IMG/VR virus record: IMGVR_UViG_3300013131_000038
Location: 1 to 64,000 of that record
Direction: 5' to 3' (one strand)
DNA: 64,000 nucleotides
Source: an uncultured virus (IMG/VR IMGVR_UViG_3300013131_000038)
Taxonomy: Duplodnaviria > Heunggongvirae > Uroviricota > Caudoviricetes
Below the pieces are notes generated by a model. It did no database searches and was not told the origin of the DNA. It saw only the letters and a program-made list of their open reading frames with translations. Position 1 is the stretch's first letter, and the number at the start of each line of letters is the position of its first letter. The position numbers and the translations under genes were made by a program. Shown here in pieces: positions 1,770 through 27,670 of this stretch.

Positions 1770-3100
1770 GCGATATCTCGCACATCAGACAAACTGTTCT
1801 CGATTTGATCGCGAAAGAAAAACGAAAGACAGTTTTTGAAATCATCGACTTTTACTACGCCAAGGCTAAGACTTTAGCCGAGTTCGATGTTCTCGGAGAG
1901 TTGTCTTTAAAGGCCGAGTATCACGAAGTATATTTGCAGTGCGCAGAAGCGGCGTATTCTTGCGCGAGTACAAGCGAGCAAATTGCCGCTGCTCGCACGA
2001 ACCTCTATCAAGCTTACAATCGTCTCAATTATCCAGAGAAGGCTCTGTTTTATATCGATCTTCACTATAAGCGCGACCCAGACAACTTCGAAGGATTGAT
2101 GAACAAGGCATTTAACCTTGCGTTATTGGGTCAGAGAAAAGAATCGGAAACGATTTTGGAAGGCTTGAGAGCAAGAAGCGCCGAAGATGCTGAAAACTTG
2201 CGATACTCTCTTTCGGGTAAAATGCTTCGTTCTGGCGAAACTGCCGATGGAATCATCAACTTTATCGACACGTTCAAGCCTAGAAGCAAGCTGTTTGAGG
2301 ATAGCTTCAACATGAAAAAGTGGGTCGGCGGTCCACAGCCTGGCCGCACAATCTTCGTTAACGGCGAAGGCGGCGTTGGCGACGAGATTATTAACATTCG
2401 CTTCTTCAAGCATCTCAAAGATCTTGGAATGAATCCAGTCTTGTACTCTTGCTGGTCAATGTATCGCCCAGATATTGTTGACGTGTTTCGCCGTCACGGT
2501 CACGAAGTTATCTCGGAAACGTATTCTATCGACAAGACTGCACTGTGGACAAATATGATGCCGCTGCCCGGTTATCTTGGCCTCGAAGAAAAAGATCTTT
2601 GGTACGGTCCATACCTCACGCCAAAGCGCGATCCGAAGAATCGCCTCGAAAGCAAGAAGTTTAAAATTGGTATTAAAGCTAACGGTAACCCGTACTTTTC
2701 TCAGGACATTTATCGGCGCATTCCAATCGATCAAATCATTGAAGCCTTGTCCGAGTTCAAGGATATCGAAATCTACTTCTTTGATAAAGAGCAAGCTCAC
2801 TCAAAGTGCATCAATATGAAAGACAAGTTGAACTCTTGGGACGATACGCTCGACTACATTGACCAAATGGACGTGATCTTAAGCTCTTGTACGAGCCTCG
2901 TTCACGCTGCTGGAGCAATCGGCAAAACAACTATCGTTATGACGCCGATTGCCGAGTATTATGTTTGGACAAGCACGCGCACGAACAATAGCACGCCTTG
3001 GTATGGAGATAACTTCTATGTTGCGAAACAAGAGAAGCTGCGCTCTTGGGCAGAACCGTTACAAAAAGCTAAAGAAATTATAAAGGGACTAATCGGATGA
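1766..3100 (+). CDS. TPR-like N-terminus plus GT-B (family 9-like) glycosyltransferase
   Basis: Helical TPR-like region, then EGGVGDEIINIRF and DTLDYIDQMDVILSSCTSLVHAAGAIGK...PWY. Confidence 0.8.
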   Translation: MSDISHIRQTVLDLIAKEKRKTVFEIIDFYYAKAKTLAEFDVLGELSLKAEYHEVYLQCAEAAYSCASTSEQIAAARTNLYQAYNRLNYPEKALFYIDLHYKRDPDNFEGLMNKAFNLALLGQRKESETILEGLRARSAEDAENLRYSLSGKMLRSGETADGIINFIDTFKPRSKLFEDSFNMKKWVGGPQPGRTIFVNGEGGVGDEIINIRFFKHLKDLGMNPVLYSCWSMYRPDIVDVFRRHGHEVISETYSIDKTALWTNMMPLPGYLGLEEKDLWYGPYLTPKRDPKNRLESKKFKIGIKANGNPYFSQDIYRRIPIDQIIEALSEFKDIEIYFFDKEQAHSKCINMKDKLNSWDDTLDYIDQMDVILSSCTSLVHAAGAIGKTTIVMTPIAEYYVWTSTRTNNSTPWYGDNFYVAKQEKLRSWAEPLQKAKEIIKGLIG

Positions 3101-3756
3101 AATTTGAATACTGGTTTCCAACTGTTCTCGCCGTTCATCACGCCGAGGACAATTGCAGAAATGCAACTAAAGAAAAGATCTCGAAGTGGATCGAAAGCGG
3201 CGAGCACACAAAGTACCTCGAAGCTTGCCGCGAAGATAACTTGACAACGAGTTATTTTAAATGGCACGACACTCTCGGAGACTTGAAGCTAACAGAGTTA
3301 CACGCCGAGATCTTAGCTCAAACGGCAAAGTTCATTGAGCATATGGGTTTACATCTTGAAACTAAGAACCTCAAAGTAGACTCTTGGATCAATTTCTTTT
3401 ACCCGAATCAAACAGAACATCAGCACAACCATTACGGCAACTTCATTTCGGGCGTTTACTACGTTACTGGCAACGAGAAATCGGGCGCTTTTAGATTCTT
3501 CGATCCTGCCGTTCAAAAAACAATGTGGCGCGGTCAGTATTTATCGAATTCGGCACAGTCGATTGTTAACTTAACGAGCGGTCAGTATCTCCCAGAAGAC
3601 GGCAAAATGATCTTGTTTCCTAGCTGGTTAGAGCACTCGGTGTTGAAAAACACGTCGGACGAACCTAGAATCTCGATAGCATTCAATATCAATTTAAAGA
3701 ATCAAAATGAAAAAGACGTATCACATGATCACTGGTCTCCCGCGTTCGGGATCTAG
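3097..3756 (+). CDS. 2OG-Fe(II) oxygenase (TIGR02466-like)
   Basis: SWIN..HQHNH...ISGVYYV, FFDP, GKMILFPSWLEHSV, RISIAFN. Confidence 0.9.
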   Translation: MKFEYWFPTVLAVHHAEDNCRNATKEKISKWIESGEHTKYLEACREDNLTTSYFKWHDTLGDLKLTELHAEILAQTAKFIEHMGLHLETKNLKVDSWINFFYPNQTEHQHNHYGNFISGVYYVTGNEKSGAFRFFDPAVQKTMWRGQYLSNSAQSIVNLTSGQYLPEDGKMILFPSWLEHSVLKNTSDEPRISIAFNINLKNQNEKDVSHDHWSPAFGI

Positions 3757-4480
3757 TTTGTTGACCGCGATTCTAAAGCAGAACCCACGCTTTCACTCTT
3801 CGATCACGGACGGATTTGCCGCTTCTATTCCAAAGGCTTTGGAAGCTTGCCAAGGAGCGCCCGGTATGCGTTCCGAGTTTCCAGACCAACGCAAGCGCGA
3901 TCTTGTTGAGGCAATGTTCGATGGCTTCTACAAGTGCGTAGACAAGGAAGTTGTTTTCAACACTAGCCGAGGCTGGACGTATCTCACGTCGATTGTTAAA
4001 GATCTTTATCCAAACTCGAAGATGCTCGTTTGCGTTCGCGACATCAAGTGGATCTTAGACAGCTTTGAACTCGCCTTTCGCAGAAACCCTTACACGGTGA
4101 ATAGCGTATCGTTCGGTGGTTTGAGCGGTAGCGTTTACTCTCGCGCAGATTCGTTTATGAGCGACGACGGCATCGTTGGCTTCGCTTACAACGGTTTGAA
4201 GCAAGGCATCACTAGCGGCGAGAAGAAGAGTTTGATGCTCGTTGAGTACGATCAGCTCTGCAAGAACCCGAAGGGCATGATGACTGCGATCTATAACTTC
4301 ATTGGAGAGCCGCAGTTCGAGCACGACTTCAACAACGTTCAAATGTCTTGGGACGAGTACGACGCAGAGATCGGCATTAAGCTGCACAATGTTCGCAAAA
4401 AGATCAAATATACTCAGCGCGAAACGATTCTCCCTCCTGACCTTATTCACAAGTATTCGGGCTTAGAAGTTTGGCGTTAA
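3707..4480 (+). CDS. PAPS-dependent sulfotransferase
   Basis: ITGLPRSGSSLL (5'-PSB loop), VCVRD..WILDS (3'-PB), VEYDQLCKNP...IYNFIG. Confidence 0.9.
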   Translation: MKKTYHMITGLPRSGSSLLTAILKQNPRFHSSITDGFAASIPKALEACQGAPGMRSEFPDQRKRDLVEAMFDGFYKCVDKEVVFNTSRGWTYLTSIVKDLYPNSKMLVCVRDIKWILDSFELAFRRNPYTVNSVSFGGLSGSVYSRADSFMSDDGIVGFAYNGLKQGITSGEKKSLMLVEYDQLCKNPKGMMTAIYNFIGEPQFEHDFNNVQMSWDEYDAEIGIKLHNVRKKIKYTQRETILPPDLIHKYSGLEVWR

Positions 4481-4848
4481 TGCAAGAACGCACGTTCAGA
4501 GAATGCGGCGAGTGTTACGCTTGCTGTGATGGTCACTTGTTCGCTAATGCTCACGGCAACAAGTTCGGTGCTGGCTGCGCTTGTGCTTTTTTAGTAAACA
4601 AGAAATGCTCCGTTTACGAGAACCGACCCGATGTTTGCCGCAAATATCAGTGCGCTTGGACGCAGCATCTTCTCGACGTGGATATGCGCCCAGACAAGTG
4701 CGGCATCATGGTTTCCGTAGAGATTGACGCTAATAAAAAGCAGTATCTCAAAGTGATGCAGATCAAAGAATTTGTAGGCTACGAGGTTTACAAAAAACTT
4801 GACGAATGCGCGAAAAAACTTCATACCTATTGGATTAAAGCTTCATGA
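4480..4848 (+). CDS. YkgJ-like cysteine-cluster (Zn/Fe-chelating) protein
   Basis: CGECYACC...CAFL...CSVYENRP.VCRKYQC. TAATG coupling suggests the start is ATG 4480. Confidence 0.8.
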   Translation: MQERTFRECGECYACCDGHLFANAHGNKFGAGCACAFLVNKKCSVYENRPDVCRKYQCAWTQHLLDVDMRPDKCGIMVSVEIDANKKQYLKVMQIKEFVGYEVYKKLDECAKKLHTYWIKAS

Positions 4849-5774
4849 ACACAACTTTCATTATTAGTGGCGGCGCGGGTCGAGTAATTGCAGCAGTTCC
4901 AGCGTTAGAGAAGTATGCGCGGCTAAATCCAAATGACGATTTCAAAGTTCTCGTTTATGGATGGGAGAGTTTGTTCTGGAGCCACCCAGTTTTACAAAGC
5001 CGCACGTTCTCGATTCATCAGAAAGGAACGTTCGAAGTTAGTATCAAAAATAATCGTGTCGTTTGTCCTGAGCCTTACTACGTTCATGACTACTACAATC
5101 AGAAGATTTCTTTAGCGCAAGCCTTTGACGCCGAGATCAACAAAACATCTGACTATTCTGATTTAACGCCGCCGAAGCTTTATATCTCGACTCTTGAGCG
5201 TAACTCGGCTCTTAGAATCGTGCGCGAGACTAGCAAGGAACGCGCAAAAACGCTCGTTATTCAGCCGTATGGTAGTGGGATGGGCATTTTGAATAATCGC
5301 CCGTTTGATTCGAGTCATCGTAGCTTGGACGTGGACGCCTATTTAAAAATCGTTAAGCGCTTATCCGAGAAGAATCGCGACCTTTCGATCATTTACTTTG
5401 GCGACCAAAACTATCGCCACCCTGCCGATGACGTGTCCGTAGACCTTAAGCCTTACGGTCCCGATCTTCGCGCATACTTGTCTTTGATTGCAGTTAGCGA
5501 TTACTTTTTGGGTTGCGATAGCGTTGGGCAACACATGGCTCGCGCCCTTAACAAGAACGGAATGGTCTTAATGGGATCGACCGACGAAACTAACGTTTCT
5601 TACCCAGACTATTTTACGATCTATCGCAAAAAGGGTCACGTTCCAACTTACAGTCCGATTCGTCTCTCTGGTTTAGATTGCGAGTTTGCCGACAGATTAA
5701 ATGACGGCATCATGAACTTCAACGACGAAGAGATAGAAGAGATTTGCGATACGGTAAACGCGAGCCTCTATTAA
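4845..5774 (+). CDS. Glycosyltransferase family 9-like (GT-B)
   Basis: GGAGRVIAAVPAL N-terminal motif and LIAVSDYFLGCDSVGQHMARAL. Confidence 0.8.
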   Translation: MNTTFIISGGAGRVIAAVPALEKYARLNPNDDFKVLVYGWESLFWSHPVLQSRTFSIHQKGTFEVSIKNNRVVCPEPYYVHDYYNQKISLAQAFDAEINKTSDYSDLTPPKLYISTLERNSALRIVRETSKERAKTLVIQPYGSGMGILNNRPFDSSHRSLDVDAYLKIVKRLSEKNRDLSIIYFGDQNYRHPADDVSVDLKPYGPDLRAYLSLIAVSDYFLGCDSVGQHMARALNKNGMVLMGSTDETNVSYPDYFTIYRKKGHVPTYSPIRLSGLDCEFADRLNDGIMNFNDEEIEEICDTVNASLY

Positions 5775-10995: not shown

Positions 10996-13900
10996 ATGGC
11001 AAAAGGAATCCAAGTACCCGTAACGCAGACTGGGCTAAGTCAGTCTATTAATCAAGCCGTTAAGAAAGTAGGGCCGATTAATGTACCGATTAACGTCAAT
11101 CCCAATGCGTTCAAGAACCTTTCACAGCCACTTGGTAGAATCACGGGTCTTGCCAGCGAGTTTGAAAAGTCAATTGCGGCGTCTAATGCGCGTGTTATCG
11201 CATTCGGCGCGTCAGTAGGTATCATCAATGGCTTTCAGAACGCCCTTTCTCAACTTGTAAAAACGGGCATTGAAGTTCAAAAAACTCTTGCCGATATTTC
11301 TGCTATCAGTGGGGCAACTGGCGTTGAGCTTTCTAAGCTCGCAGATGGTATTTTCGATGTTGCCAAAAATACGGGTCAGTCATTCAAAACGGCATCTGAA
11401 GCTGCACTAGAGTTTTCTCGCCAAGGTTTGGCGTTAGAAGAAACGATCAAGAGAACAAACGATGCGTTAACACTGAGCCGCTTTACTGGTTTAAGCGCAG
11501 CCGATTCGGTAGATACTCTAACTGCCGCATTTAACTCGTTCCAAGAGTCTGGAGTCACTACGGCAGAAATTCTGAATAAGTTAGTCGCAGTTGACTCGGC
11601 TTATGCAGTTTCTGCTGCTGACCTTGCAAAAGCTATTTCTCGCGTAGGTTCAGTAGGTATCGAGGCTGGCGTTTCGCTAGATGAACTTAATGCTGCGGTA
11701 ACGGCAGTTCAGCAGAGAACTGCGCGTGGTGGTGCAGTTATTGGTAACGCATTCAAGACGATTTTTACAAACCTTAGATCCGAGAATGCGATCAAGGCTT
11801 TGCGCGATATTGGAGTAGAGTCTCTTGACCTTCAGGGAAATTTAAAGCCTTCGCTACAAGTTATTAAAGAACTTGCGGTCGCCGTGCAAGGTTTAGGAGA
11901 GGGTGAACGTGTTCAGATTTTAGAAACGATCGCTAGTAAGTACAACATTAACATTTTGTCTGCACTTATTGGCGATTTGACGGATAAGCAGAGTGCATTT
12001 ACTGGAGCGCTGGAAAAGAGCGCCAATGCAGCGTCAGAAGCTTACGATAGACAAAAGCAGTTAAACGAAACTTTGGCGGCGGCGATTAACAATACGACCG
12101 TTTCCGTAACGCAACTTTTCAACAAGCTCTCAGAAATTGGAGTAAACGAAAATCTAACTGCGCTGCTGAAGTTTGTAAACGATTTACTATCTGGTTTCAA
12201 TAAGCTGCTCGACTCTGAAAGCGTCGGCGGAAACATTGCGAAGGGTTTGATCAAGGGCATCAGCGATGTATTTTTCACCGTTGGTCTTCCAATCATTGCG
12301 GCCATCTTCGTAAAACTGACTCGCGATATTGCTCAGTTCGGTATCGAGTCTTTAAAAACTATTCTCGGAATCAATCAACAGGTGCGCGAGCGTCAGGCTC
12401 TTGAACAAGCCGTAGTAAATACGCTAATTAAAGATCAGCAAGTAATGGCTACGATTCTTGCTCTGAGTGGAGACAGGGCAAAGCAAGAGCAGTATTTACT
12501 TAATGTTTACAATCAGCAGATTGCCGCACTACAAAAGGTTCAGAGCATCGCACAATCTGTTGCTCCTGCTCTTCAAGGCGCTGGACTTAGCGCGACATCT
12601 GGTCAAGTTCGCAGACGCGCAGCTGGTGGTTATCTGCCAAGTCAAGAAGCCTCCGATGTTCGTCGCGGTGTTGGCGGCGCAAGTCCATCCTCAAAAGTAG
12701 TTTCGATTCCAAATTTCGCATTTGGCGGCGGTAAGCACGGGACAATGATCGCCAATACGAGCGAGTATATTGTTCCTAATTTTGCGAACGGTGGGTCGGC
12801 AATCTTTAATCCTGATATGGTTAAGGCTTATGGATTGCCAGCGGGAGCCAAGAAGATCAATGCGTCTGGCGGCTATGTCCCGAATTTTGCTAGATATGTT
12901 TATGATGCTGACCGTATCGTAGCAGATAAAAATGCCTTATTAAAGGCAATTTTAGCTTCTAGAGCGAAAAAGAATTTGATTGTCGGACCAGCCGGAGCCG
13001 GTAAAAGTACTTATGGCGGAGGGCTTGGATCGTTCATAACGAACGTTGCTCAACTAGGCGATGCTACTGAAATTGATATTTTATCTAGCGCGGGCAGAAC
13101 AAAGGAGGGGGGATTTTCGAAAAATTTCCAAGAACTTGTAAACGCCGTAAACGTTTCTGGAGGCAAAGTTTCTTATCTATATGCTAGTAATATGGATATC
13201 CTTTCTCGCCGCTATGGAAGAACAGAAAATGCTATTCAAGAAGGAGATTTGAGAAGTAAAAAGCAAATTGTAGGCACAATTTATGCGCCATTAAATCAAT
13301 TTGACTTTATTTCAAAGATGAAAGGAAGTTCTAAAAACTTCCAGATGACTCGCGGATCTGGCGGCTTTATTCCAAATTTTGTAAATGAGCTACCCGGTAA
13401 AACGCCTGCATATAGTCAGCCAAAAACTAAACCAAAAGGTTCTAATTTAGATTCAGTTACAGTAGACGCAAGATGGTCGGGAGGAGCAGTTATGCTTTTG
13501 CCGTCCAGCAAGCAAAGACAGAAATTTTTAAAGCAAGGATACAGTACAGCGCCAAGTGCAAACGTAAGCAAAAAGGAAGTTCTACCTGATGGGAGAAGAA
13601 TTTCGGGTGTTCTTTTTGATGCTTTCGCTGTAATACCAAGTGAATTAAAAAGTAGAAGTGGACAAGAAATTGCAAATATTGAAGAACGAGTTAAAAAGGT
13701 TGTTTATCAAACTGGATCTGAAATAATAGCAGATTTTGATCCACTACAAAGACCGCAAGTAGGAGCAGATGAGTTTGCAAGAGTATATGATAAAAAAGGT
13801 GGTGCCGCTGGTGCCGCATCCGCAGTTGCTGGATCGATTTTTGAAGCTGCCGTTGACTATGCATTAAATCCACAAAAAGCAACGAATGTACAAAGTACGC

Positions 13901-16900
13901 TCGATGTTCCTAGGTTATCACCAGAATTAATTAAAGCCTTTGGAATTACCACTCCTTATGGAACATCGTCTGGAGGCGATTATAAAATTAGTGCCGAGAG
14001 AGCACAAGCGTTTGCAGACCAAATTATTAGAAATAAAGTGTATCAGCCGCCAGCTCCAAAAGCTGCTGCGTCTACTGGTTACGTTCCAAATTTTGCGAAA
14101 CAATCGGCGCTTTCTGATGCTATCGGACGTGAAATTGGCGCTGGAGTTAATCCAAGCCAAATCCGAGTCACGCAAGACGGAAGACTCAGAAACTCGCAAA
14201 ATCCAAATGGCCTTGCAGTAATCAACACAAGAGACGAGCCAAACGGAAAAGTTCCAAACTTTGCCAGAGAAAGATATGCCGCTGGAGAAATTGTAAATGG
14301 GAAAAAGGTTGGTGGACAGTTTAAACCAGCATCGGCAGCTTCTGGTCGGACCGCGAGTGCAACTACGCCACTAACAGATCAAACTGCAAAATTGTTTTTG
14401 GCATTTTCTGGACTAACTCTTGTTTCTTCGACTCTACAATCAACATTCAAAGATACTGAATCTAGTATAGCTAAATTCGCCACTGCAACATCTAATGTTG
14501 TTCAAACGCTTTCAAGTGGTGCGCTGCTTGGTAATTTAGTGCAGCAAACTGGATTGTCTGGTTTGGCTAAAAGAGGAGGTGTTCTTGGAAGTGTTGGACG
14601 TATAGCTGGAAATGCTGGAATAATTGGCGCAATCGGTGGCGCTGGTATAGGTATTTATCAAGAAATTCAGGCAGCAAGAGAAGCGGAACGTCAACGACCA
14701 ATTTTAGCTGGAGAAGAAGGAGCTGGTCGTAGAATCGCAGATATCGCCGCTCAAGAAACCAATCCTGAGTCAATCAGAGAACAGCTACTTAAAGATTTCC
14801 AAGCTGGACAAGCAGAATTTGAAAGAATTCAAGCTCAATTACAACAAGGAAGCGAAAGAGCTGCGGCGGCTCGGCTTAATGTCGCCGCTTTTGGAACTGG
14901 TGGAGAATTCGACCCACAGCTTCAAGAAAATGTAAAATTTTTAGAAGAAAGAAAAAAACTGGAAGAAGAGCTTAATACTTTACTGGGAGGTCAGCAAAAA
15001 TTTTTGCAACAAATTGGAGCAACGACAAATGATATAGAAAATGCTGCCAAGAGAAAAGAAAAATTAGAAAAAGAAGCGAATACCGAAGCTGAAAGACGCA
15101 TAAATCTAGAGCAGGCTTTTGAAAAAATTGCTTTATCTATTTTAAAGGGCGATAATGAACGTTTGAAAGCGCGTGCGCAAATTGCCGCGCAAGATATTAA
15201 AAATGCAGCCAATCTTAATAGTTTTCAAAAACAAGAATTAGAGTTTAATAGAAAAATTCAAGACTTTGAAGAAGAGTCAACGCAGAAGCAAAGAGACCTT
15301 TTAAATTTAACTGTTCAGCAGTTAATTAAGGGCGGAAGTTTAGCGAGCGTAACTGAAGAACAAGCGAATAGGCTCAAGCAGATACTTGAAAGTGGAACAG
15401 AAATTGCCGATAACTCGCAATTAATTGCAGATCTTGGAATTAAAAATGCAACTGTAGTTAATGAAGAAATTGAAAAAGTATCGAACAAAATAGCTTTGCA
15501 AAAGGAAGAGACTCGTGGGCTAATAGAGCGTTTTTCAATTACTCAAAGAGCCTCAATTGAGGCGTCTAAACAGTTAGGTTTTATTGAAGCTCAAACAAGA
15601 GCTTTAAATGCTCAAGCTGAAACTGCAAGGGAAATTGAAATAATAGAAGCTAAAAGAAGTCGCTTAAGATCGGGAAAGGCTCAAGAATTAAATATTGAAA
15701 ATATAAGATCAGGTATAGCGACAAGAGGCATAGCTTCTCCGACGCAAACTAGACAGCTTCTAGAAGCTGAAAAAAATCTTAATTTTGTAACTAAAAGAAA
15801 TAATGTAGAAGAAACTTATAGGCGCTCTCAAGAAGAAGGCTTTAACGCTTTAAGAAATGCATATATTGAACAAGTAAATGGTTCTGAATTCATATCTGAC
15901 GCAGAGCAAAAACGGGCGGAAAGTTTATTGCAATCAGCTAAAACAGCAGAAGATTTACAAAAGATTTATGCTGCATTTGACCCTAGTTTTTCTGGAATTG
16001 GGACAAACGAAAATCGAGCATTAGAATATCAATTGTCTTTATTTGAACAGTCAAAAGCTATATTAGAAGAAAGAAAAAAAATAATAGACGCTAATATAAG
16101 TTTATCGAAAGAGGAAAGAGACCTCGAAATTCAAAAGCTAAATATTGAAATTAAGCGCAGAGATCGCGTATTAGAAATTGCGAAAATCAGAGAAAGCTCT
16201 AGGCTAAAAGCTGGGGTTGCTACCGCGCTTGACGACTTAGAGGCTGAATCAGAAAACTTTTATGAAACACTCGGCAACAGAACTACAATAGCTTTTAGGG
16301 ATGGCTTAACAGACGCATTGAGTGCGGCTATTTCTCAAACTGACGATCTTGGTGATGCGCTGCAAAATGTTGCGCGTAATTTCTTGCAGACGATTCAGCA
16401 GGCATTTTTGCAACAAGCTTCGGGGCAAATTGTGCAGTTAATCGGAAAGAGCTTCAATTTTGCCAATGGTGGAATCGTAAAAAAATACGCTGGAGGCGGA
16501 AAGGTAGTTGGAGGAAGCGGCTATAAAGATGACGTTCCAGCGATGCTCACAAGCGGAGAGTTTGTGATGAGAAAGTCTGCCGTGCAGAAGTATGGCATGG
16601 AAAATCTTGAAAGAATGAACAACGGCGGGATCTTCCTGCCCGGTGTTCGTGGCGCTGGTGCAATCTCTGGCTACGGCGACATCACAAAGTTCGCAAAGCA
16701 GACAACTACTAGCGGCGCAACAGACGTTATGATGGGCGGCGCGTCTTCGGCATTCATTAACCTTGAAGATCAAAGCGCAAGGCTTTCTCGTTTTGGACTT
16801 CTAAACGAAGATACGATTAATCAAGAAATTAGAGCGGCACAAGAACAGGGCTTAAATCTTATTAGAGAAAGAGAAGCTTATAGAACGGCACAGAGAAAAG

Positions 16901-17571
16901 CGTTCCAGCAACAGCTGGTTAGCACTTTAGCTTCTGCCGCAATAAGCTTCGGAGTTGGAAAATTGACCGCTCCAAAGGTAACGGGCCTTCCCGCATCTTT
17001 ATCAAAAACAGGAACTCCATTTGCTGCAAACGCTGGCCCAGCATCATTTGGCAATGTCGCTTTATTAAAGGGCGCTCCAATTAAATTTAGTGGCGGAATT
17101 GGTTCATTTATGAATCCAGTTGGCGCAAAGCCAATTCCATTTCGTGCTTATGGTGGATTGATGCGCCGCTACGCTGCTGGAGGTCCAACTGACGACATTC
17201 CTGCTCTATTGATGGGCGGCGAATATGTCATGAGCCGTCAATCGACGCGCAAATACGGCAAGCAGTTCTTCGATGCGATGAACCAAGGTAGAGCGCCAAG
17301 ATTCGCAGAAGGCGGGGTGGTCGGTGGAGCTAACGGAACTGAACTTGGGGATAAGTTTGACAAGCTCTCTACCAAACTCGAAACGACCGCAGCTTCGAAC
17401 ATTAGCATCAACATTAATGTCACGAACGGCGGATCGTCAGAAACTCAAACTCAAGGCGACACGAATCGCGGCGGCATCGATTACAAGAAGATGGGCGATC
17501 AGATTCGCCAAGTTGTTATCCAAACGATCAACGAAGAAAAACGCCTCGGTGGTTCACTGAGAAGTAGATAA
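10996..17571 (+). CDS. Tail tape measure protein (TP901-like core) with internal inserted domains
   Basis: 2191 aa. N-terminal TMP core (EFSRQG...DLAKAISRVGS..G.SLDEL...G..IGNAFKTI), long coiled-coil, C-terminal FANGG/YAGGG..DDVPAML..GEFV motifs. Internal Walker A GPAGAGKST. Confidence 0.92.
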   Translation: MAKGIQVPVTQTGLSQSINQAVKKVGPINVPINVNPNAFKNLSQPLGRITGLASEFEKSIAASNARVIAFGASVGIINGFQNALSQLVKTGIEVQKTLADISAISGATGVELSKLADGIFDVAKNTGQSFKTASEAALEFSRQGLALEETIKRTNDALTLSRFTGLSAADSVDTLTAAFNSFQESGVTTAEILNKLVAVDSAYAVSAADLAKAISRVGSVGIEAGVSLDELNAAVTAVQQRTARGGAVIGNAFKTIFTNLRSENAIKALRDIGVESLDLQGNLKPSLQVIKELAVAVQGLGEGERVQILETIASKYNINILSALIGDLTDKQSAFTGALEKSANAASEAYDRQKQLNETLAAAINNTTVSVTQLFNKLSEIGVNENLTALLKFVNDLLSGFNKLLDSESVGGNIAKGLIKGISDVFFTVGLPIIAAIFVKLTRDIAQFGIESLKTILGINQQVRERQALEQAVVNTLIKDQQVMATILALSGDRAKQEQYLLNVYNQQIAALQKVQSIAQSVAPALQGAGLSATSGQVRRRAAGGYLPSQEASDVRRGVGGASPSSKVVSIPNFAFGGGKHGTMIANTSEYIVPNFANGGSAIFNPDMVKAYGLPAGAKKINASGGYVPNFARYVYDADRIVADKNALLKAILASRAKKNLIVGPAGAGKSTYGGGLGSFITNVAQLGDATEIDILSSAGRTKEGGFSKNFQELVNAVNVSGGKVSYLYASNMDILSRRYGRTENAIQEGDLRSKKQIVGTIYAPLNQFDFISKMKGSSKNFQMTRGSGGFIPNFVNELPGKTPAYSQPKTKPKGSNLDSVTVDARWSGGAVMLLPSSKQRQKFLKQGYSTAPSANVSKKEVLPDGRRISGVLFDAFAVIPSELKSRSGQEIANIEERVKKVVYQTGSEIIADFDPLQRPQVGADEFARVYDKKGGAAGAASAVAGSIFEAAVDYALNPQKATNVQSTLDVPRLSPELIKAFGITTPYGTSSGGDYKISAERAQAFADQIIRNKVYQPPAPKAAASTGYVPNFAKQSALSDAIGREIGAGVNPSQIRVTQDGRLRNSQNPNGLAVINTRDEPNGKVPNFARERYAAGEIVNGKKVGGQFKPASAASGRTASATTPLTDQTAKLFLAFSGLTLVSSTLQSTFKDTESSIAKFATATSNVVQTLSSGALLGNLVQQTGLSGLAKRGGVLGSVGRIAGNAGIIGAIGGAGIGIYQEIQAAREAERQRPILAGEEGAGRRIADIAAQETNPESIREQLLKDFQAGQAEFERIQAQLQQGSERAAAARLNVAAFGTGGEFDPQLQENVKFLEERKKLEEELNTLLGGQQKFLQQIGATTNDIENAAKRKEKLEKEANTEAERRINLEQAFEKIALSILKGDNERLKARAQIAAQDIKNAANLNSFQKQELEFNRKIQDFEEESTQKQRDLLNLTVQQLIKGGSLASVTEEQANRLKQILESGTEIADNSQLIADLGIKNATVVNEEIEKVSNKIALQKEETRGLIERFSITQRASIEASKQLGFIEAQTRALNAQAETAREIEIIEAKRSRLRSGKAQELNIENIRSGIATRGIASPTQTRQLLEAEKNLNFVTKRNNVEETYRRSQEEGFNALRNAYIEQVNGSEFISDAEQKRAESLLQSAKTAEDLQKIYAAFDPSFSGIGTNENRALEYQLSLFEQSKAILEERKKIIDANISLSKEERDLEIQKLNIEIKRRDRVLEIAKIRESSRLKAGVATALDDLEAESENFYETLGNRTTIAFRDGLTDALSAAISQTDDLGDALQNVARNFLQTIQQAFLQQASGQIVQLIGKSFNFANGGIVKKYAGGGKVVGGSGYKDDVPAMLTSGEFVMRKSAVQKYGMENLERMNNGGIFLPGVRGAGAISGYGDITKFAKQTTTSGATDVMMGGASSAFINLEDQSARLSRFGLLNEDTINQEIRAAQEQGLNLIREREAYRTAQRKAFQQQLVSTLASAAISFGVGKLTAPKVTGLPASLSKTGTPFAANAGPASFGNVALLKGAPIKFSGGIGSFMNPVGAKPIPFRAYGGLMRRYAAGGPTDDIPALLMGGEYVMSRQSTRKYGKQFFDAMNQGRAPRFAEGGVVGGANGTELGDKFDKLSTKLETTAASNISININVTNGGSSETQTQGDTNRGGIDYKKMGDQIRQVVIQTINEEKRLGGSLRSR

Positions 17572-18341
17572 TGAAATCATCGATCTCAAATTATGAAAAC
17601 AGTCTATATCTCAGTGGCCTCAAGATCTTTGGGGTCACAGATACAAACTTTGGCTACTCGCTTCCCGTTGAGCACATCAACGTAATCGGCAATTCAAAGT
17701 TCGCGACGTTCACGAACGGCGCACCACAGTCGTCACTCAGCGTTCAAAAATACCTTTCGAAAGACGACTTTTTGCTGAGAATGACTGGCGAAGGTCCGAT
17801 TAGCGGCGGCTTATTCTACAATAATAAGAATTTTTCCTTTCGTTCAGCTTATTTGAATTCTTATTCGGTATCGTGCGCAGTTGGCAACTTCCCGAATCTT
17901 AGCGCAGACTTTTCCGTATTTGGCGACATTGGTACAGGATTGGCCCAGTCAACGTCGGGTGAAACGGGCAAACTAAGCGTCATTAGACCCGCCGATATCC
18001 TCATCGAATGCGATGGTAGCGGGTCGAACCGAATCGAGGCGTTTACCTACTCTCTTGAGTGCGCCAGACAAGCTTTCTATCATCCAACGGGTTCGGCTCC
18101 GATGGACGTGGTGACTCAAAAGCCATTCCGAGTAACGGCGCAGTTCACGATTGCGATAGATGACTACGAATCGAAAAGACTTTTCGATTATGTTGTAGAT
18201 TCGAATAAAAGAAACGTTAGTATAACAGTAGGTTCGTTAGCTACGTTTACAATGGCAAATATGGAGCTTCTCAGCGAAACGGTCAACAGCACAGCAACGG
18301 ACGACCTTGTGCTGACGCTTAACTATCAAGGATTCATCTAA
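17571..18341 (+). CDS. Tail-tube-like paralog (tail tip/initiator)
   Basis: AYLNSYSVSCAVGNFP and IRPADILIE align with GFITNYSVEAAVGGLP and LRPGDITLE of 5827-6954. Confidence 0.6.
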   Translation: MKSSISNYENSLYLSGLKIFGVTDTNFGYSLPVEHINVIGNSKFATFTNGAPQSSLSVQKYLSKDDFLLRMTGEGPISGGLFYNNKNFSFRSAYLNSYSVSCAVGNFPNLSADFSVFGDIGTGLAQSTSGETGKLSVIRPADILIECDGSGSNRIEAFTYSLECARQAFYHPTGSAPMDVVTQKPFRVTAQFTIAIDDYESKRLFDYVVDSNKRNVSITVGSLATFTMANMELLSETVNSTATDDLVLTLNYQGFI

Positions 18342-19306
18342 TGTCATTCCTTTACGATAGAGACCAAAACGTAACTGGAACGATTCCGCCGTCGTTCACT
18401 TTCAAACCGTCTTACGGAACGACCGTTTCGTTCAACGCTGACCTTTCGCAGTACGAGACGACCGACAATTATATCTATACGATGCCAAAGGGCGCGAATC
18501 ATTTGCAACTAGAGTTTGCGATGAATTTCGACAACAGAAAAGAAGAAGAGGCGCGTCAGATCTTAGGTTTCTTCGAAAGCTTGAACGGCACTGGCTACTT
18601 TCAGTATACGGACCCAGCGGGCATCTACAAACCGATCAATTTGTTCACGAACGACTTTACAAATTCGTTCGACAAAAATGATTTGCACTCGATCACCGCA
18701 AATCTGAATTCGGACCAGTTTTCAAGTCTGCTCAACTGGAACAATCCTTTTTTAGCTCAAACCGCCAATGTTAAAGGGGACTGGGCTACTAGCACCTCTT
18801 ATCTCGAATACGACGTAGTGAGATACACGGGAAACGCAACATATCCAAGTAACACGGGCAACCTATACGACTCATTTTACTACTGCACTGGAGACCACAC
18901 TTCAGACGCGAGCTTCAGCGCGTCAAATATGAACAACGATAAGTGGACTCGCGACTTCTTCTTCCAGCCAACTTACTCGTCGCAAATCCAAAAAGAGACC
19001 GCAGTTGTAAAAACGCAGCTACCTTACTCGTACACGAAGCGCACAGACTTTGGCCTGCACTCGAACACGATAAAGTCTTTCAATCTAGAGTTCAAGGGAG
19101 TTTCGGATAAGGAAGCGCGATGCATCTTGCACTTCTTGATCTCGAAACAGGGTTTTCGCCGCTTTCAATACAAGTTCCCAAAGATCTACAATCAGAACAA
19201 ATACTTCTTCGCGACAACTTGGTCGCACACGATGGTTTACAAGGACGTTAACGATATTTCGATAACGATTCGCGAAGACCCGTTAGGCGTTAGGAAATCA
19301 TACTAA
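18341..19306 (+). CDS. Minor/distal tail protein with two lambda gpM-like units and a central carbohydrate-binding-like insert
   Basis: EARQILGFFESLNGTGYFQY and EARCILHFLISKQGFRRFQY, with insert GDWATSTSYLEYDVVRY...YYCTGDHTS. Confidence 0.65.
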   Translation: MSFLYDRDQNVTGTIPPSFTFKPSYGTTVSFNADLSQYETTDNYIYTMPKGANHLQLEFAMNFDNRKEEEARQILGFFESLNGTGYFQYTDPAGIYKPINLFTNDFTNSFDKNDLHSITANLNSDQFSSLLNWNNPFLAQTANVKGDWATSTSYLEYDVVRYTGNATYPSNTGNLYDSFYYCTGDHTSDASFSASNMNNDKWTRDFFFQPTYSSQIQKETAVVKTQLPYSYTKRTDFGLHSNTIKSFNLEFKGVSDKEARCILHFLISKQGFRRFQYKFPKIYNQNKYFFATTWSHTMVYKDVNDISITIREDPLGVRKSY

Positions 19307-20478: not shown

Positions 20479-23400
20479 ATGAGCAAAAGAATTTCAGACG
20501 TTACAGAGGCAACGCGGATCGACTCGAACGATCAGATCTTGTTCTTGCAAGCTTCTTCTAAGAAAACCAAAAGAATCTCAAGAGATAACTTTGCCAAGAG
20601 CCCCGGTTTCGGTGGAGCTATTCCTGAACTTTCTGGAGACATTGAAGCTCCAGCTACGCCAACTGGACTCGCAGTAACTACTGCGTCTGAAATCATGCCA
20701 GATGGCACCGAGCGTGTCATTATTCGTGCCAAGATCACGCCAAATACAGAAGAAGATTTAGAGTCGTATAGTTGGTATCTTAGACGTGCAAGCGGGACTC
20801 CAACGTTCGATGGCAGCGGCGTTTTGACTGGCTATTCGGTCGCTCAGGTTTTTACTCCAGTACTGGAGTCGATGCCAGCAGAAGGTAGTATTGGCACAGA
20901 TGGCAAAGTAACTAAAGAGTGGACGGTAGTTGCGAATAGTTATTACGAAGTTCGAGTTGCTGCTTTAGATACAGATGGAAATTTTTCTGATTACACGCAA
21001 CTCAATAACACGAATGTAATCTTGTCATCAAAAGACTCGGTTGCGCCAAATGCGCCAACAAGCGTCGCTGCGACATCTGCAATTAGATCTGTATTTTTGA
21101 CTTGGGTTAATCCAGCCGATAAAGATTTGGCTTATGTTAGAGTTTTTAGACCAACAAATGTAACCAATGCCTATAACATTGTTTCGGCAACAAGAAGCGC
21201 TACAACAGTAACGATTACAACAGCAACTGCGCATGGATACGCCAATGGAAATTCCGCAACGGTTGTGGGATTATCTGGGACCGTAAATCCAAACGGTTCA
21301 AAGACGGTTACGGTCGTAAACTCGACGCAGTTTACATACACGATAGCTTCTGCTATCGGATCTGAAACGTATGCCATAACTAATGGAACAACGACATTAA
21401 CGTCTAATGTTTTTTCTGTCTTTGATGGCTACGCAGATGCTTTTACCGACACTAGCACAGAACAGGGAAAGACTTATAGCTACTGGTTAACTGCCGTAGA
21501 CTATTCTGGAAATGAAAGCACTTATCCTTCGAATGTTGGTAGAACAACACCCGGTACTGTAGAAACGACCGACGTAAAAGATTTTGCCATCAATGCAACC
21601 AAGATGTACAACAATACGATTGTACTCGAAGGTGATTCTTGGACGAGCAATACTGGTACATATACTATTTCTTGGAACAGCCATTTTCTGTATTATCACG
21701 GAGTAAAGTATACTGTCGCATCTGGAAGCTTAACTGCGTCTTCTGAAGTTGCTGGGGCTAGAACTGCGTATGTTTACGCTACGATTCCAGTTTCTGGATC
21801 AACAATCACTTATAGCACATTTGTAGTTACTGGCACCACTTATCCAAATGATTATCCAGTCTTAACCGACTCGATGTTCATGATCGCTACAAATGTTAAT
21901 GGCGCTTATGACTTAGCTTGGAACGCTATTGCAAATGCGGTAATTGGTTCGGCGTATATCAAAAACGCGGCGATCGATAGCGCGAAGATCAGAGAAGTTA
22001 TTGCTGACAGAATTTCAACTGGAACAATTGATGCTAAAACACTAACGATCACTGGCGGCGGCGTTATCAAGAGCCCGGGCGTAACTAACTTCAGTTCAGG
22101 TCAAGGCTTTTATCTCGAAGGTACATCTTCGGGAACAACTTCTAGGTTTGGCGTTGGCGACTTAAGTGGCTCCGGTTCTTTCGTAAAGTTTGACGTTAAC
22201 ACGCTAACTGTTCAGGGAACGCTTCAAGCGACCGCTGGTCACTTCGGCGGCGCAACTGGCGTCACAATCAACGCTTCTGGTTTAACAGTATCGACTACTG
22301 GTATAATCAATTCTACTGGCACCAACTATAATTCTGGAACAACTCAATTCGATGGAACGGGCGGTTTCTTCTTGGGAAGAGTTGGAGGCGCGTATCAATT
22401 TTTTGTTGGGTACACAGCAGCAGATAAATTCATTCGATGGAACGGAACCGACCTGACCGTTCGCGGAACGATCAATGCCACCGCTGGCTACTTTGGGTCT
22501 TCGGCTAGCGTTGTTGCGGTAGACTCTTCTGGTTTGACAGTTTCAACGTCTGGAAGAATCAACGCTTCCGGCGTAACTTACAATTCTGGAACTACTGCTT
22601 TTGATGGTAATGGATTTTTCTTAGGTTATGCTGGTGCCGCTTATCAGTTTTTTACTGGAAGTGTCGCAAGCGGAAAGTTCATACGTTGGAACGGAACCGA
22701 CTTAACTGTTCAGGGAACGCTTCAAGCGACCGCTGGTCACTTCGGCGGCGCAGCTGGCGTCACAATCAACGCTTCTGGTTTGACAGTTTCAACGTCTGGA
22801 AGAATCAATGGAAACGTTAACTATAACGTTTCCTTTTCTCCTCCATTTGGAGGTGGCGACAGCAAGGGCTTTTTCTTAGGTTATGCTGGTGGCGCTTATC
22901 AATTTTTTATTGGACATGGTGGCGCGTCGCCTGGTCAATACCTATATTGGAACGGAACTTCCTTATCTATTACTGGAGAAATTAGAGCGATATCTGGTTA
23001 TATCGGAGGGACGACTAGTGGCTGGGAAATTACTTCGGGAACGATATCAAATTATAACGCAGCAAGCGGAAGAACTACTACGCTAACCTCTGATGCTAAA
23101 ATCGCAATATCAAATCCGCTGAGTACTATGACGCTAGACAATTCTTCTAATCAGGGAAGCATTACTATCAGCGGAACATATCCAGCGGTTCTTACCGCTG
23201 GCGTAGCAAATAGCGTTTTAACGCTTGGATCTGGAACAGCTAGATCTATCTTAAATCAAACTTCTGGTTTGTTTTTGGATGACGATGGAGTAGGAACTAG
23301 AAAAGTAACAATTAATACTACCTCGCCAGTAGAGCTTAGACGAGATGGATTATTTTTAGGGGTAGGTACTGGTAAAAAGATTGTCGTCGGATCGAGTACA

Positions 23401-24015
23401 TATTCTAGCATTCAAGATATCACAACTAGTGGATTTGCCATAAATGTAAAAGATGCTATAGTTGAAGTCGTCTCGACTATCCCAGACAATACTGGTCTTC
23501 TTAACCAAGGGCTAGAAACTTACAGAATGCGCGGGAACCCAACTACCGCAAACAATGAAATTTATTTGCGACAATATTTTAATCGTCATACGTTCGGTAG
23601 TACTTGGGATGGCGTTGGCATCAGATTCCAGCATCATGTTTATCAAAGCTTATATGGATTTATAGAGTTTAATTCGGCAATAGGAGTTGCTGGAAGAGAC
23701 ACAGATAAGTCTGTTGCTATTGGCAGCGGAGTCGATGAAAGACTAAGAATTAATCCTTTGTCCGTAAATATCAAAGATGTTAATCTGCGTATTTATAGCG
23801 GATCGACTCAATCGTGTAGAATTGACTACACTAATGGAGACTACTATATTCTTGGCAATAAGATTATTAGCGCAAGAAGAACGGGCTGGACCGCCGCGAC
23901 TGGGACCGCAACAAGAACGTCTTTCGACACATCAACTGTAACTACAGCGCAGCTGGCAGAGCGCGTCAAAGCTCTACTAGACGATCTAATCGCCCACGGA
24001 TTAGTCGGAGCTTAA
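20479..24015 (+). CDS. Tail fibre/receptor-binding protein with FN3 domains and ~83-aa internal repeats
   Basis: APATPTGL..YYEVRVAALD..GN.S and APNAPTSV..YSYWLTAVD.SGNES FN3 motifs, AYIKNAAIDSAKI, and GFFLG..YQFF.G..F(I)RWNGT.LT repeats. Confidence 0.85.
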   Translation: MSKRISDVTEATRIDSNDQILFLQASSKKTKRISRDNFAKSPGFGGAIPELSGDIEAPATPTGLAVTTASEIMPDGTERVIIRAKITPNTEEDLESYSWYLRRASGTPTFDGSGVLTGYSVAQVFTPVLESMPAEGSIGTDGKVTKEWTVVANSYYEVRVAALDTDGNFSDYTQLNNTNVILSSKDSVAPNAPTSVAATSAIRSVFLTWVNPADKDLAYVRVFRPTNVTNAYNIVSATRSATTVTITTATAHGYANGNSATVVGLSGTVNPNGSKTVTVVNSTQFTYTIASAIGSETYAITNGTTTLTSNVFSVFDGYADAFTDTSTEQGKTYSYWLTAVDYSGNESTYPSNVGRTTPGTVETTDVKDFAINATKMYNNTIVLEGDSWTSNTGTYTISWNSHFLYYHGVKYTVASGSLTASSEVAGARTAYVYATIPVSGSTITYSTFVVTGTTYPNDYPVLTDSMFMIATNVNGAYDLAWNAIANAVIGSAYIKNAAIDSAKIREVIADRISTGTIDAKTLTITGGGVIKSPGVTNFSSGQGFYLEGTSSGTTSRFGVGDLSGSGSFVKFDVNTLTVQGTLQATAGHFGGATGVTINASGLTVSTTGIINSTGTNYNSGTTQFDGTGGFFLGRVGGAYQFFVGYTAADKFIRWNGTDLTVRGTINATAGYFGSSASVVAVDSSGLTVSTSGRINASGVTYNSGTTAFDGNGFFLGYAGAAYQFFTGSVASGKFIRWNGTDLTVQGTLQATAGHFGGAAGVTINASGLTVSTSGRINGNVNYNVSFSPPFGGGDSKGFFLGYAGGAYQFFIGHGGASPGQYLYWNGTSLSITGEIRAISGYIGGTTSGWEITSGTISNYNAASGRTTTLTSDAKIAISNPLSTMTLDNSSNQGSITISGTYPAVLTAGVANSVLTLGSGTARSILNQTSGLFLDDDGVGTRKVTINTTSPVELRRDGLFLGVGTGKKIVVGSSTYSSIQDITTSGFAINVKDAIVEVVSTIPDNTGLLNQGLETYRMRGNPTTANNEIYLRQYFNRHTFGSTWDGVGIRFQHHVYQSLYGFIEFNSAIGVAGRDTDKSVAIGSGVDERLRINPLSVNIKDVNLRIYSGSTQSCRIDYTNGDYYILGNKIISARRTGWTAATGTATRTSFDTSTVTTAQLAERVKALLDDLIAHGLVGA
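22205..22808 (+). repeat. Near-identical intragenic direct repeats in the tail fibre
   Basis: 22205-22283 vs 22703-22781 (79 bp, 1 mismatch). 22526-22562 vs 22772-22808 (37 bp, identical). Confidence 0.9.
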
Positions 24016-24945: not shown

Positions 24946-26043
24946 CTAAACCTTTGCCAGAACGTCTCTTATATGAGTCAAAGTGTTCGCGTAAGTGAGT
25001 TTTTGACCCAACGCAACGCCAGCGTCGTTCTTCTTACCAGATAAGGTAAGCTCAACAGCCTTTTCGATAGCAGCTACGGCAGCATCGTCCGAGAAATCGT
25101 AAATGTTGCCTTGGTTAAAGTCGGAACCTTTCTTGAAGAAAGTCCCGTCATAAGCCTCGATTTTGCCCGTTGACTCAACGAGGATAGAGTTATCCTTGGT
25201 CGCCCAGTCTTTGTGGCTCGTAGCGTTCAGTACGATGCTCCACTTGCCAAGGCAAGTTGCGTTGAACGCAGGAAGACCCCAACCTTCTGCGCCGCTAAGA
25301 CCAGAGAGGTCAATATCGGCAGAGTTAATGATGTCGTTGACTTCGGCGTTCGTCGCGACGAAAGGCAGGAAGTTGATATTTGAAGCGAGGCTCTTGTAAC
25401 CCATTACCATCTTCTTCATCAGTTCCTTGTCGAGAAACGGATTCATAACCGAGCAACTAAGTTGGAACTTTGGATTGTTGCCGTACTTCTTTGCCCAGAG
25501 CTTAATGATCTTGTCCGTATGCTTGCGCTTTTCGAACTTGCCCATCAGCAAGAAGTGAGTCTTTCCCTCAAGATACTTTTTATTCGTTTTAAAGAAACTC
25601 GGATCGAAACCAAGCGGAGCAGAGTACACGTTAGCGCACCCGTTGCTTACGAACGAGTCTCTAGCATACGAGCTAGAGAAGATCGTCGCGTCTTGAAGCG
25701 CAACTATTGCATTTTCTACAACAGTTGGCTGATCGAGTTCATAAAACGAAAACAGTACTTGCTTTTTCGTGAGACGCTTCTCGGCTCCGTTAATGTGCCA
25801 AAGCTTCAAAGACACTGCATCCTTAGAAAGATCTCTGTACCGATTGTCGATTAGACTTTTGATCCAATCGACAAACTCGGCGTCTTTCTTATCGAACGCA
25901 GACAGGTCTACGTTCGAGATCGGAAAGTACGAAACCTTAAAGGACGAGTCGCTTTGCTGGAGCTTGTAAAGCTCTTTGAGAATGTTATACGCAACATTCC
26001 CAAACGACACTTGGTTTAACGGAGCTTCGAAGACAACGTGCAT
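24946..26043 (-). CDS. Glycosyltransferase family 4-like (GT-B)
   Basis: MGKFEKRKH and SGAEGWGLPAF motifs. Confidence 0.8.
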   Translation of the reverse strand: MHVVFEAPLNQVSFGNVAYNILKELYKLQQSDSSFKVSYFPISNVDLSAFDKKDAEFVDWIKSLIDNRYRDLSKDAVSLKLWHINGAEKRLTKKQVLFSFYELDQPTVVENAIVALQDATIFSSSYARDSFVSNGCANVYSAPLGFDPSFFKTNKKYLEGKTHFLLMGKFEKRKHTDKIIKLWAKKYGNNPKFQLSCSVMNPFLDKELMKKMVMGYKSLASNINFLPFVATNAEVNDIINSADIDLSGLSGAEGWGLPAFNATCLGKWSIVLNATSHKDWATKDNSILVESTGKIEAYDGTFFKKGSDFNQGNIYDFSDDAAVAAIEKAVELTLSGKKNDAGVALGQKLTYANTLTHIRDVLAKV

Positions 26044-27605: not shown

Positions 27606-27611
27606 GACCGC

Positions 27612-27641
27612 AGAGTAGATCAACATAATCGAACTTGTCAA
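27612..27641 (-). promoter_or_regulatory. Sigma-70-type promoter for dut operon, predicted leaderless
   Basis: TTGACA-N18-TACTCT, 6 nt before ATG 27605. Confidence 0.55.
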
Positions 27642-27670
27642 TGGTTTTTCCACAAGGTCACGCGAAGCGT

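Follow-up and report, generated by a model that had tools for sequence, protein, structure and literature searches.

An array of exchangeable modules, closed by a conserved junction peptide, in the tape measure protein of an uncultured phage

We analyzed a 64,000-nucleotide stretch of DNA (hereafter the window; positions 1 to 64,000 of the IMG/VR record IMGVR_UViG_3300013131_000038, an uncultured member of the Caudoviricetes whose whole record comprises 76,481 bases), and focused on its tape measure protein (TMP), a product of 2191 amino acids (aa) encoded in a single frame by the open reading frame (ORF) at 10996-17571 on the plus strand and labeled P0001. We consider it almost certain that residues 541-1090 of this TMP form a motif-fenced array of separately folding modules, each closed by a short junction peptide with the consensus A-[AS]-x-G-[YF]-[IV]-P-N-F-A, as derived from 660 instances in related TMPs. 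That the junction peptide has a function of its own is very likely, and comparison with relatives shows this peptide to be the exact site of module gain, loss and reordering.

A preliminary description of this DNA had assigned the gene as a TMP, and this assignment was borne out by a Pfam tail domain and by matches to thirteen PHROG tape measure families, the top one with an E value of 1.8e-42. The gene sits within a tail gene module, upstream of minor tail and tip genes: the second ORF on its 3' side (18341-19306) matches PF05939 Phage_min_tail and phrog_14, and the end of the 1178-aa ORF at 20479-24015 is tail-needle-like.

10996-17571, plus strand: TMP gene P0001 (PF10145 PhageMin_Tail, E 6.3e-27; PHROG TMP families, best phrog_4211, E 1.8e-42)
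11362-11931, plus strand: PhageMin_Tail domain, aa 123-312 (Pfam PF10145, 95.2 bits; cut-off 33.2)

The same description had listed six PNF(A/V) motifs in the gene. All six were recovered where they had been placed, as [IV]PNF[AV] in one frame of one ORF, compared to the 0.025 PNF[AV] expected from the length and composition of the protein, and no further PNF[AV] was found in any of the six frames across the window. A degenerate seventh copy, overlooked at that stage, reads AAGGYLPSQEA (aa 542-552), and the corresponding site is GGFIPNY or GGFIPNF in the relatives L095 and L065. The copies were located with a motif search and a motif hidden Markov model (HMM).

12613-12651, plus strand: degenerate seventh junction motif, RRAAGGYLPSQEA, aa 540-552 (weak match of the motif HMM at aa 540-548)
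12691-12720, plus strand: junction motif 1, SKVVSIPNFA, aa 566-575 (motif search and HMM; P, N and F invariant in alignment A1; IPNFA at aa 571-575, 12706-12720)
12757-12786, plus strand: junction motif 2, TSEYIVPNFA, aa 588-597 (motif search and HMM; VPNFA at aa 593-597, 12772-12786)
12862-12891, plus strand: junction motif 3, ASGGYVPNFA, aa 623-632 (motif search and HMM; last element of the conserved motif cluster)
13354-13383, plus strand: junction motif 4, GSGGFIPNFV, aa 787-796 (motif search and HMM)
14068-14097, plus strand: junction motif 5, ASTGYVPNFA, aa 1025-1034 (motif search and HMM)
14236-14265, plus strand: junction motif 6, EPNGKVPNFA, aa 1081-1090, with its V at 14251 (motif search and HMM)

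Four of these copies lie within 90 residues of each other in a motif cluster (aa 541-632) that has no intervening module and is the most conserved part of the TMP, with 84-93% identity to 19 relatives versus 60-95% for the N-terminal part. We also observed that the stretches leading up to motif 2 (GTMIANTSEYIVPNF, aa 578-597, 12727-12786) and motif 6 (GLAVINTRDEPNGKVPNF, aa 1072-1090, 14209-14265) have the pattern G-x-x-[IV]-x-N-T-x-[DE]...[IV]PNF in common, and the junction peptide may, on the basis of this pattern, be the end of a larger repeated unit.

To place these copies in their family, homologues were chosen by likeness to the motif region or to module M1 (described below). A search with aa 530-1120 returned 730 proteins at E ≤0.001, of which the 120 listed were all TMPs (1463-3144 aa), and related stretches occur on at least 629 IMG/VR contigs; the contigs with related TMPs stem from aquatic metagenomes and from metagenome-assembled genome (MAG) bins of many phyla. 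No match was obtained when the TMP gene (by megablast) and aa 542-1111 (by tblastn) were compared with 50,697 GenBank phage records; the motif region is therefore absent from the isolated phages of that collection, from which close neighbors of the window's own genome may have been withheld. PNF recurs three to nine times per related TMP, and in a set of 266 distinct TMPs with a length of 1700 aa or more, two or more PNF motifs are present in 258 and three or more in 253. Leave-one-out conservation was complete for P (679/679) and nearly so for G at position -3 (679/681), [IV] at position -1 (679/697) and N (679 of 695 G[YF][IV]P.FA sites; the others have S in 12 cases, R in 2, K in 1 and E in 1), followed by F (679/764, with Y in 82) and A (679/881). 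In 1.44 Mb of related loci the motif was found 347 times inside TMP ORFs versus 14 times outside; six of these 14 cases fell in ORFs of at least 100 aa, five of which are truncated or frameshifted TMPs. The six copies of the window do not use the same codons for Pro, Asn, Phe and Ala, and likeness between the copies at the DNA level is confined to stretches of 13-17 nucleotides (nt) with 76-94% identity; it is thus the peptide, and not the DNA, that is conserved, and the sequence comparison indicates selection on the protein as the reason for its retention.

Next, every TMP was cut at its motifs and the resulting pieces were clustered at BLASTP E ≤1e-5 over at least 70% of the longer piece. 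A first set of 121 proteins yielded 31 module families in 40 arrangements, and the 266 distinct TMPs yielded 79 families (40 with two or more members) in 85 arrangements, some with up to seven modules. The arrangement of the window, M3-M1-M2, was found 40 times and M1-M2 49 times, and M1 precedes M3 in 13-14 TMPs versus about 45 with the order M3-M1. Module boundaries are exact: the start of M3, [RK]Y[VI]YD[AS]DR, immediately follows PNFA irrespective of the sequence upstream. Two relatives (P0006 and P0011) share 95% identity with the TMP of the window over the N-terminal 540 aa and 93% over the C-terminal 390 aa, have no M3 at all, and carry an M1 that is just 52% identical to that of the window. 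The comparison of homologous TMPs proposed in the preliminary description thus came out in its favor, with conserved motifs and intervening segments that differ in identity, number and order.

A Pfam scan of 37 whole TMPs placed no PNF-fenced module above its cut-off and revealed no recognizable toxin or anti-defense enzyme. In distant relatives, a 567-aa PNF-fenced module has sub-threshold matches to GHKL ATPases (L093 aa 985-1077 and L106 aa 1002-1094; HATPase_c_3 with 22.3 bits, cut-off 25, and HATPase_c with 22.0 bits, cut-off 26.4). Some relatives have lysozyme, chitinase-19 or SLT domains, which lie at about aa 2000-2160 and are unfenced by PNF; no peptidase or hydrolase Pfam domain was found in P0001 at E ≤1. 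A candidate gene fission at the motif in one relative (L014, 8209-13130) was rejected, as this split TMP is broken by frameshifts inside M3 and not at the motif. The contig is a MAG contig from a long-read polished assembly, and the frameshifts in its P-loop module are probably sequencing errors rather than a split gene.

These data bear on the possibility that the peptide is an evolutionary scar, inherited by duplication of a module with its linker or serving as microhomology for illegitimate recombination, and functionless in the protein. Such an origin would be consistent with the short DNA likeness between copies, with the UvsX-like recombinase, single-stranded DNA-binding protein and exonuclease encoded by the phage, and with the coincidence of exchange points and motif, but 79 unrelated module families all end in the same peptide, and conservation of P, G and N reaches 98-100% in TMPs with only 35-45% identity elsewhere, while synonymous sites vary. 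This pattern argues for purifying selection on the peptide, and we regard the scar as very improbable. The related suggestion of a recombination anchor acting at the DNA level, made in the preliminary description, is weak, given the differing synonymous sites and the shared stretches of at most 13-17 nt.

We then turned to the modules of the window itself. The preliminary description had delimited two globular segments between the fullest motif copies, of 154 aa (12892-13353) and 228 aa (13384-14067); these sizes are exact, and both segments, here termed M3 and M1, were modeled as globular by AlphaFold2, neither of them as an ordinary TMP helix.

12892-13353, plus strand: module M3, aa 633-786, P-loop nucleoside triphosphatase (NTPase)-like alpha/beta domain (invariant residues in 15 sequences, AlphaFold2 model)
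13384-14067, plus strand: module M1, aa 797-1024, hypervariable TMP-specific domain (41-sequence alignment, AlphaFold2 model)
14098-14235, plus strand: module M2, aa 1035-1080, conserved closing block of about 47 aa (BLASTP matches in most loci)
14746-16395, plus strand: charged, proline-poor region, aa 1251-1800, presumed helical ruler by composition alone (E+K+R+D+Q 0.35-0.46, P ≤0.02, G+C 0.368)

M3, which is present in 87 of the 266 TMPs, has a Walker A sequence, GPAGAGKST (12985-13011, aa 664-672), followed by EIDILS (13069-13086) and SRRYGR (13204-13221). Across 15 M3 sequences the P, G, G, K and T of the Walker A sequence are invariant (GPAGxGK[ST]T), as are R residues and the E and D of EIDILS, a Walker B candidate assigned by eye; the module also contains an arginine-rich stretch. 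With its flanks, M3 was modeled as an alpha/beta domain with a predicted local distance difference test (pLDDT) score of 66.6 and a predicted template modeling (pTM) score of 0.64. Its match to Pfam AAA_30 (18.6 bits) is under the cut-off of 27, PDB profile matches are confined to the Walker A region, and fold searches gave a best E of 5.5e-3 with Foldseek and a best Z of 5.6 with VIA, with GTPases and kinases among many alpha/beta folds. Values of 0.78-0.82 (that is, below 0.9) to clusters of small P-loop kinases (AAA_33, SKI, PRK and Zeta) in the ESM Atlas provide a lead only.

M1 is found in 208 of the 266 TMPs. An alignment of 41 sequences, 12-41% identical to the M1 of the window, keeps only G946, F949, E950, D970 and K997; these conserved sites fall in GSIFE (13831-13845), TLDVP with D970 (13897-13911) and a [DE]xK motif present as DYK (13975-13986). 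The order and spacing of these residues, E...D...[DE]xK, recall PD-(D/E)xK nucleases as a residue pattern only. The AlphaFold2 model of M1 and its flanks (pLDDT 77.6, pTM 0.71, core above 90) places the E in a helix and the D and K on strands. M1 matched nothing in Pfam or PHROGs, and a Pfam scan of the 41 members found no family common to more than one of them. A nuclease identity was dropped after a profile comparison covering Mrr_cat, in which hhalign against 25 Mrr_cat domains gave a probability of 0.18% and E 0.33 over 18 columns around FE; a lectin identity was likewise rejected, the PDB profile matches behind it (E 0.003) being spurious. When the M1 profile was compared with 1.84 billion representatives, 387 matches were obtained, and the 150 listed were TMPs (with the domain at about aa 620-900) or TMP fragments; eight of these 150 were shorter than 700 aa, and the four inspected were TMP fragments or frameshifted. 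The contrast between the hypervariable M1 and its strongly conserved flanks suggests contact with a host factor that itself varies. M2, by comparison, occurs in 179 of the 266 TMPs and is 62-89% identical to its relatives.

In the AlphaFold2 models the flanking motifs have a pLDDT below 50, indicating flexibility, beside confident module cores. A three-copy structure prediction of aa 536-640 scored 0.00 and, being without controls, is uninformative either way. The two segments had also been described as AT-rich. Their G+C contents of 0.391 (M3) and 0.409 (M1) are indeed below those of the N-terminal part (0.454), the motif cluster (0.507) and the window (0.444), but this is undistinctive and carries no message, because the charged, presumably helical region encoded further along this gene has an even lower value (0.368).

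Together, these observations address a further alternative, namely that P0001 is an ordinary TMP with chance or low-complexity repeats, a normal helical ruler and a compositional artefact. Internal repeats are known in TMPs, and a mosaicism survey reports that mosaic signals in TMPs are often false (PMC10684548). We nevertheless consider this explanation refuted, and assign it a negligible probability, as the number of motif copies far exceeds expectation, the segments are modeled as globular alpha/beta or mixed domains rather than long helices, and hundreds of TMPs retain both the motifs and the module boundaries.

What the junction peptide does is more tentative. In the mechanism we propose, it would be an exposed, flexible processing site that is cut after the invariant Asn (PN/FA, a slash marking the cut), by analogy with the TMP pb2 of phage T5, in which the cut follows the residue next to F-V-P. 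The cut could be the work of a protease or, in the manner of asparagine peptide lyases, of the Asn itself. At tail maturation or ejection, M3 and M1 would be freed or unhinged, and would enter the host envelope or cytoplasm with the TMP, before the DNA, in a manner resembling that of the TMP gp96 of phage P23-45 with its fused RNA polymerase. As a whole, we regard this mechanism of processing and delivery as a possibility that falls somewhat short of an even chance, and would say the same of the modules acting inside the host; that the peptide is cut, which is argued from analogy, is a guarded supposition. The broadest form of the proposal, in which the TMPs of this clade are polyproteins that are cut at PN/FA and release changeable, ready-made proteins into the host at DNA entry, as a tail counterpart of polymorphic effector delivery, appears unlikely to us.

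The Asn at the presumed scissile bond, whose scissile role is an assumption, is the near-invariant one (679 of 695 sites). In the 1219-aa T5 pb2, the motif HMM has a single match, at 1118-1126, which sets R1127 on the Asn column with a score of -3.2 and E 1.3 and is not significant, and the top BLASTP local alignment between the C-terminal parts of P0001 and pb2, also not significant (E 0.22), starts at PRFAEGG in the former and PR-AEGG in the latter.

17296-17316, plus strand: PRFAEGG, aa 2101-2107, located 89 residues from the C-terminal end and similar in position to the cut site of T5 pb2
12244-12318, plus strand: strongly hydrophobic, transmembrane-like segment, aa 417-441 (to about 446), N-terminal to the module array (Kyte-Doolittle 19-aa mean 2.05)
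14392-14658, plus strand: hydrophobic, glycine-rich region, aa 1133-1221, C-terminal to the module array (Kyte-Doolittle segment 1203-1221, G-rich composition)

Several results weigh against processing and delivery. The likeness to T5 is statistically insignificant (HMM and BLASTP alike), and no protease gene was found among the ORFs neighboring the TMP gene. The occurrence of M1 and M3 in TMPs only fits integral TMP domains as well as cargo, and a series of four motif copies with no module between them suggests a structural element more readily than a set of cut sites. With hydrophobic segments on both sides of the array, the destination compartment is unreadable from sequence. For M3, neither Pfam, PDB profiles, Foldseek, VIA nor the ESM Atlas gave a specific enzyme family, and for M1 the fold searches produced no nuclease (Foldseek best E 0.18; a wide VIA search best Z 4.8; nothing usable in the ESM Atlas). 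Given how the homologues were chosen, the module counts are valid for the clade and not for TMPs at large. Two terms of the preliminary description must be narrowed in this light. Its "enzyme-like" segments do have a Walker A sequence (M3) and catalytic-looking residues (M1), but neither matches a known enzyme family by sequence or fold. Its "swappable effectors" do exchange, but the phrase is overstated for the window, where M1 is near-universal and specific to TMPs; for M3, a search for free-standing relatives of 85-272 aa yielded, at the sensitivity used, nothing but one match on a 917-nt contig, a fragment.

Some of these points are accounted for by an uncut peptide acting as a hinge or docking element, that is, as a structural staple that binds the tube lumen or the tail assembly chaperone, or as a fixed flexible joint for threading bulky domains, with the TMP chain intact and the modules serving assembly, lumen packing or an envelope-spanning conduit without being released. 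The motif cluster, with its four copies, no modules and 84-93% identity, is hard to read as a series of cut sites; M2 is a conserved 47-aa block that ends in the motif; and the restriction of M1 and M3 to TMPs and the lack of a neighboring protease among the ORFs found agree with this reading as well. On the other hand, the Walker A sequence with invariant acidic and arginine residues and the E, D and [DE]xK set of M1 point to catalysis rather than packing, M1 is hypervariable beside conserved flanks, and the flanking motifs are not modeled as packed against the modules. Moreover, optional modules come and go between near-identical backbones, which argues that they are not needed for assembly. 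We consider an uncut hinge a tenable explanation, less likely than not but nearly on a par with cutting of the peptide.

The remaining features of P0001 are two copies of a C-terminal motif, GG...DD[VI]PA.L..GE[FY]VM, that is invariant in the family; the PHROGs that match it, 35029 and 13338, are annotated as function unknown.

16522-16569, plus strand: C-terminal repeat 1, YKDDVPAMLTSGEFVM, aa 1843-1858 (D-D-V-P-A..L..G-E invariant in alignment A1; PHROG 35029 and 13338 matches)
17185-17232, plus strand: C-terminal repeat 2, PTDDIPALLMGGEYVM, aa 2064-2079 (same family-wide alignment A1)

The phage encodes ribonucleotide reductase, DNA polymerase, primase/helicase, ThyX, a UvsX-like recombinase, a 2OG-Fe(II) oxygenase and sugar-modifying enzymes, a gene content that identifies it as a sizeable phage of lytic type. 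Its DNA polymerase is apparently spread across three adjacent or overlapping ORFs of 245, 225 and 856 aa (41779-45702, plus strand), of which the first and third match phrog_405 and the middle one matches the exonuclease subunit family phrog_192. The adjacent ORF at 45705-48119 (plus strand) encodes an 804-aa ClpA/ClpB-type double-AAA+ unfoldase with Clp_N, AAA, AAA_lid_9, AAA_2 (E 8.8e-55) and ClpB_D2-small domains; it carries the PHROG label "ATP-dependent protease" and was rejected as a processing protease, since it shows no protease domain. The 1901-aa ORF at 58162-63867 (minus strand) matches central tail fiber J and host-specificity families (phrog_31, E 2.1e-112). This further large gene for the tail or for host recognition lies about 34 kb away from the tail cluster ending at 24015, on the other side of the replication module. 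Regions 3097-5774 and 24946-34690 contain a 2OG-Fe(II) oxygenase, a sulfotransferase (PF13469, E 2.8e-12), glycosyltransferases, a nucleotide-sugar epimerase and a dehydrogenase, and further along the window a choline-kinase-like ORF lies at 48079-49062 and a heptosyltransferase-like one at 52205-53506. Possible targets of these enzymes are a surface glycan or the DNA.

TMPs are usually viewed as passive rulers that carry a cell-wall hydrolase at most, the one well-studied exception being a fused RNA polymerase. Hundreds of uncultured aquatic phages (at least 629 IMG/VR contigs; 730 proteins) have in common a TMP in which exchangeable modules are strung together, with a single, strictly conserved peptide at the joints. 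If these modules are delivered, they would represent a large, nearly uncharacterized reservoir of proteins for the first seconds of infection, with anti-defense, host takeover or DNA protection as possible roles, and the junction peptide would provide a simple rule for finding such proteins in metagenomes. Were the PN/FA cut to hold, the proteins released here would be a P-loop NTPase and a hypervariable domain that carries nuclease-like residues, out of at least 79 mostly unrecognized families. If the modules are not delivered, the peptide would mark an undescribed way of fitting folded domains into a tail tube.

TMPs with built-in hydrolases, one cut TMP (that of T5) and one TMP-fused polymerase are already known. 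Mycobacteriophage TM4 has an Rpf-like motif in its TMP. Hydrolase-bearing TMPs, including those among the relatives described here, likewise hold globular functional domains inside the TMP, but the hydrolase domains of the relatives belong to known families, whereas the PNF-fenced modules are all unrecognized. The literature search, in which subscription journals were mostly outside coverage, returned no description of a module array fenced by a junction peptide in TMPs, and a survey of phage protein mosaicism reports that genuine mosaic TMPs could not be confirmed (PMC10684548).

The closest precedent for processing is T5 pb2, which is reported to mature by cleavage after R1127, with pb2* and pb2C as the products (Linares et al. 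2023, PMC10038345); around this site, 92 residues before the C-terminus, the protein reads NANSFVPR/AEGG (sequence AY543070, locus L110; site from the same source). Both proteins are tape measures that are metastable in the tube, and the mapped internal cut of T5 separates a functional domain. The T5 sequence F-V-P-R/A-E-G-G resembles [YF]-[IV]-P-N-F-A-x-G-G and is closer still to P-R-F-A-E-G-G of the window, which also matches it in distance from the C-terminus. Unlike the TMP of the window, however, pb2 has one site near its C-terminus, no repeated peptide and no swappable array, no overall homology between the two was detected, and a C-terminal muralytic or metallopeptidase domain of the pb2 type has no Pfam counterpart in P0001 at E ≤1. 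Asparagine peptide lyases of virus particles cut immediately C-terminal to Asn, with nodavirus (N363/A), tetravirus (N570), reovirus and picornavirus VP0 as examples (Rawlings et al. 2011, PMC3207474). They share with our proposal self-cleavage after an invariant Asn in an assembled virion protein, which, as described there, often frees membrane-active pieces at entry; there is no fold or sequence relation to the present TMP, for which cleavage is a proposal.

The closest precedent for delivery is gp96 of Thermus phage P23-45, a TMP of 5002 aa with a virion RNA polymerase as its N-terminal part (Chaban et al. 2024, PMC10770324). The parallel to P0001 is that the N-terminal half of this giant protein contains an enzyme, which precedes membrane segments and is proposed to act in the host during DNA entry. 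The gp96 polymerase differs in being one fixed enzyme of a known family, and no fencing motif, module exchange or processing is reported for it.

A further parallel lies outside TMPs, in the conserved peptide that demarcates variable modules for exchange and that, to judge from the alignments, the present family has in common with polymorphic-toxin and polyvalent systems. In those systems, demarcation motifs include VENN of CdiA and PxxxxDPxGL of Rhs proteins, the latter peptide doubling as a self-cleavage site, and related cases are MuF-toxin fusions and the polyvalent proteins of the type described by Aravind. We found no TMP case of this kind in the literature covered. The array differs from polymorphic toxins in having several serial modules rather than one C-terminal toxin, in lacking recognizable toxin domains, and in using the tail ruler as its scaffold; in both, variable modules would be exchanged on a conserved delivery scaffold at a site marked by a short, conserved peptide.

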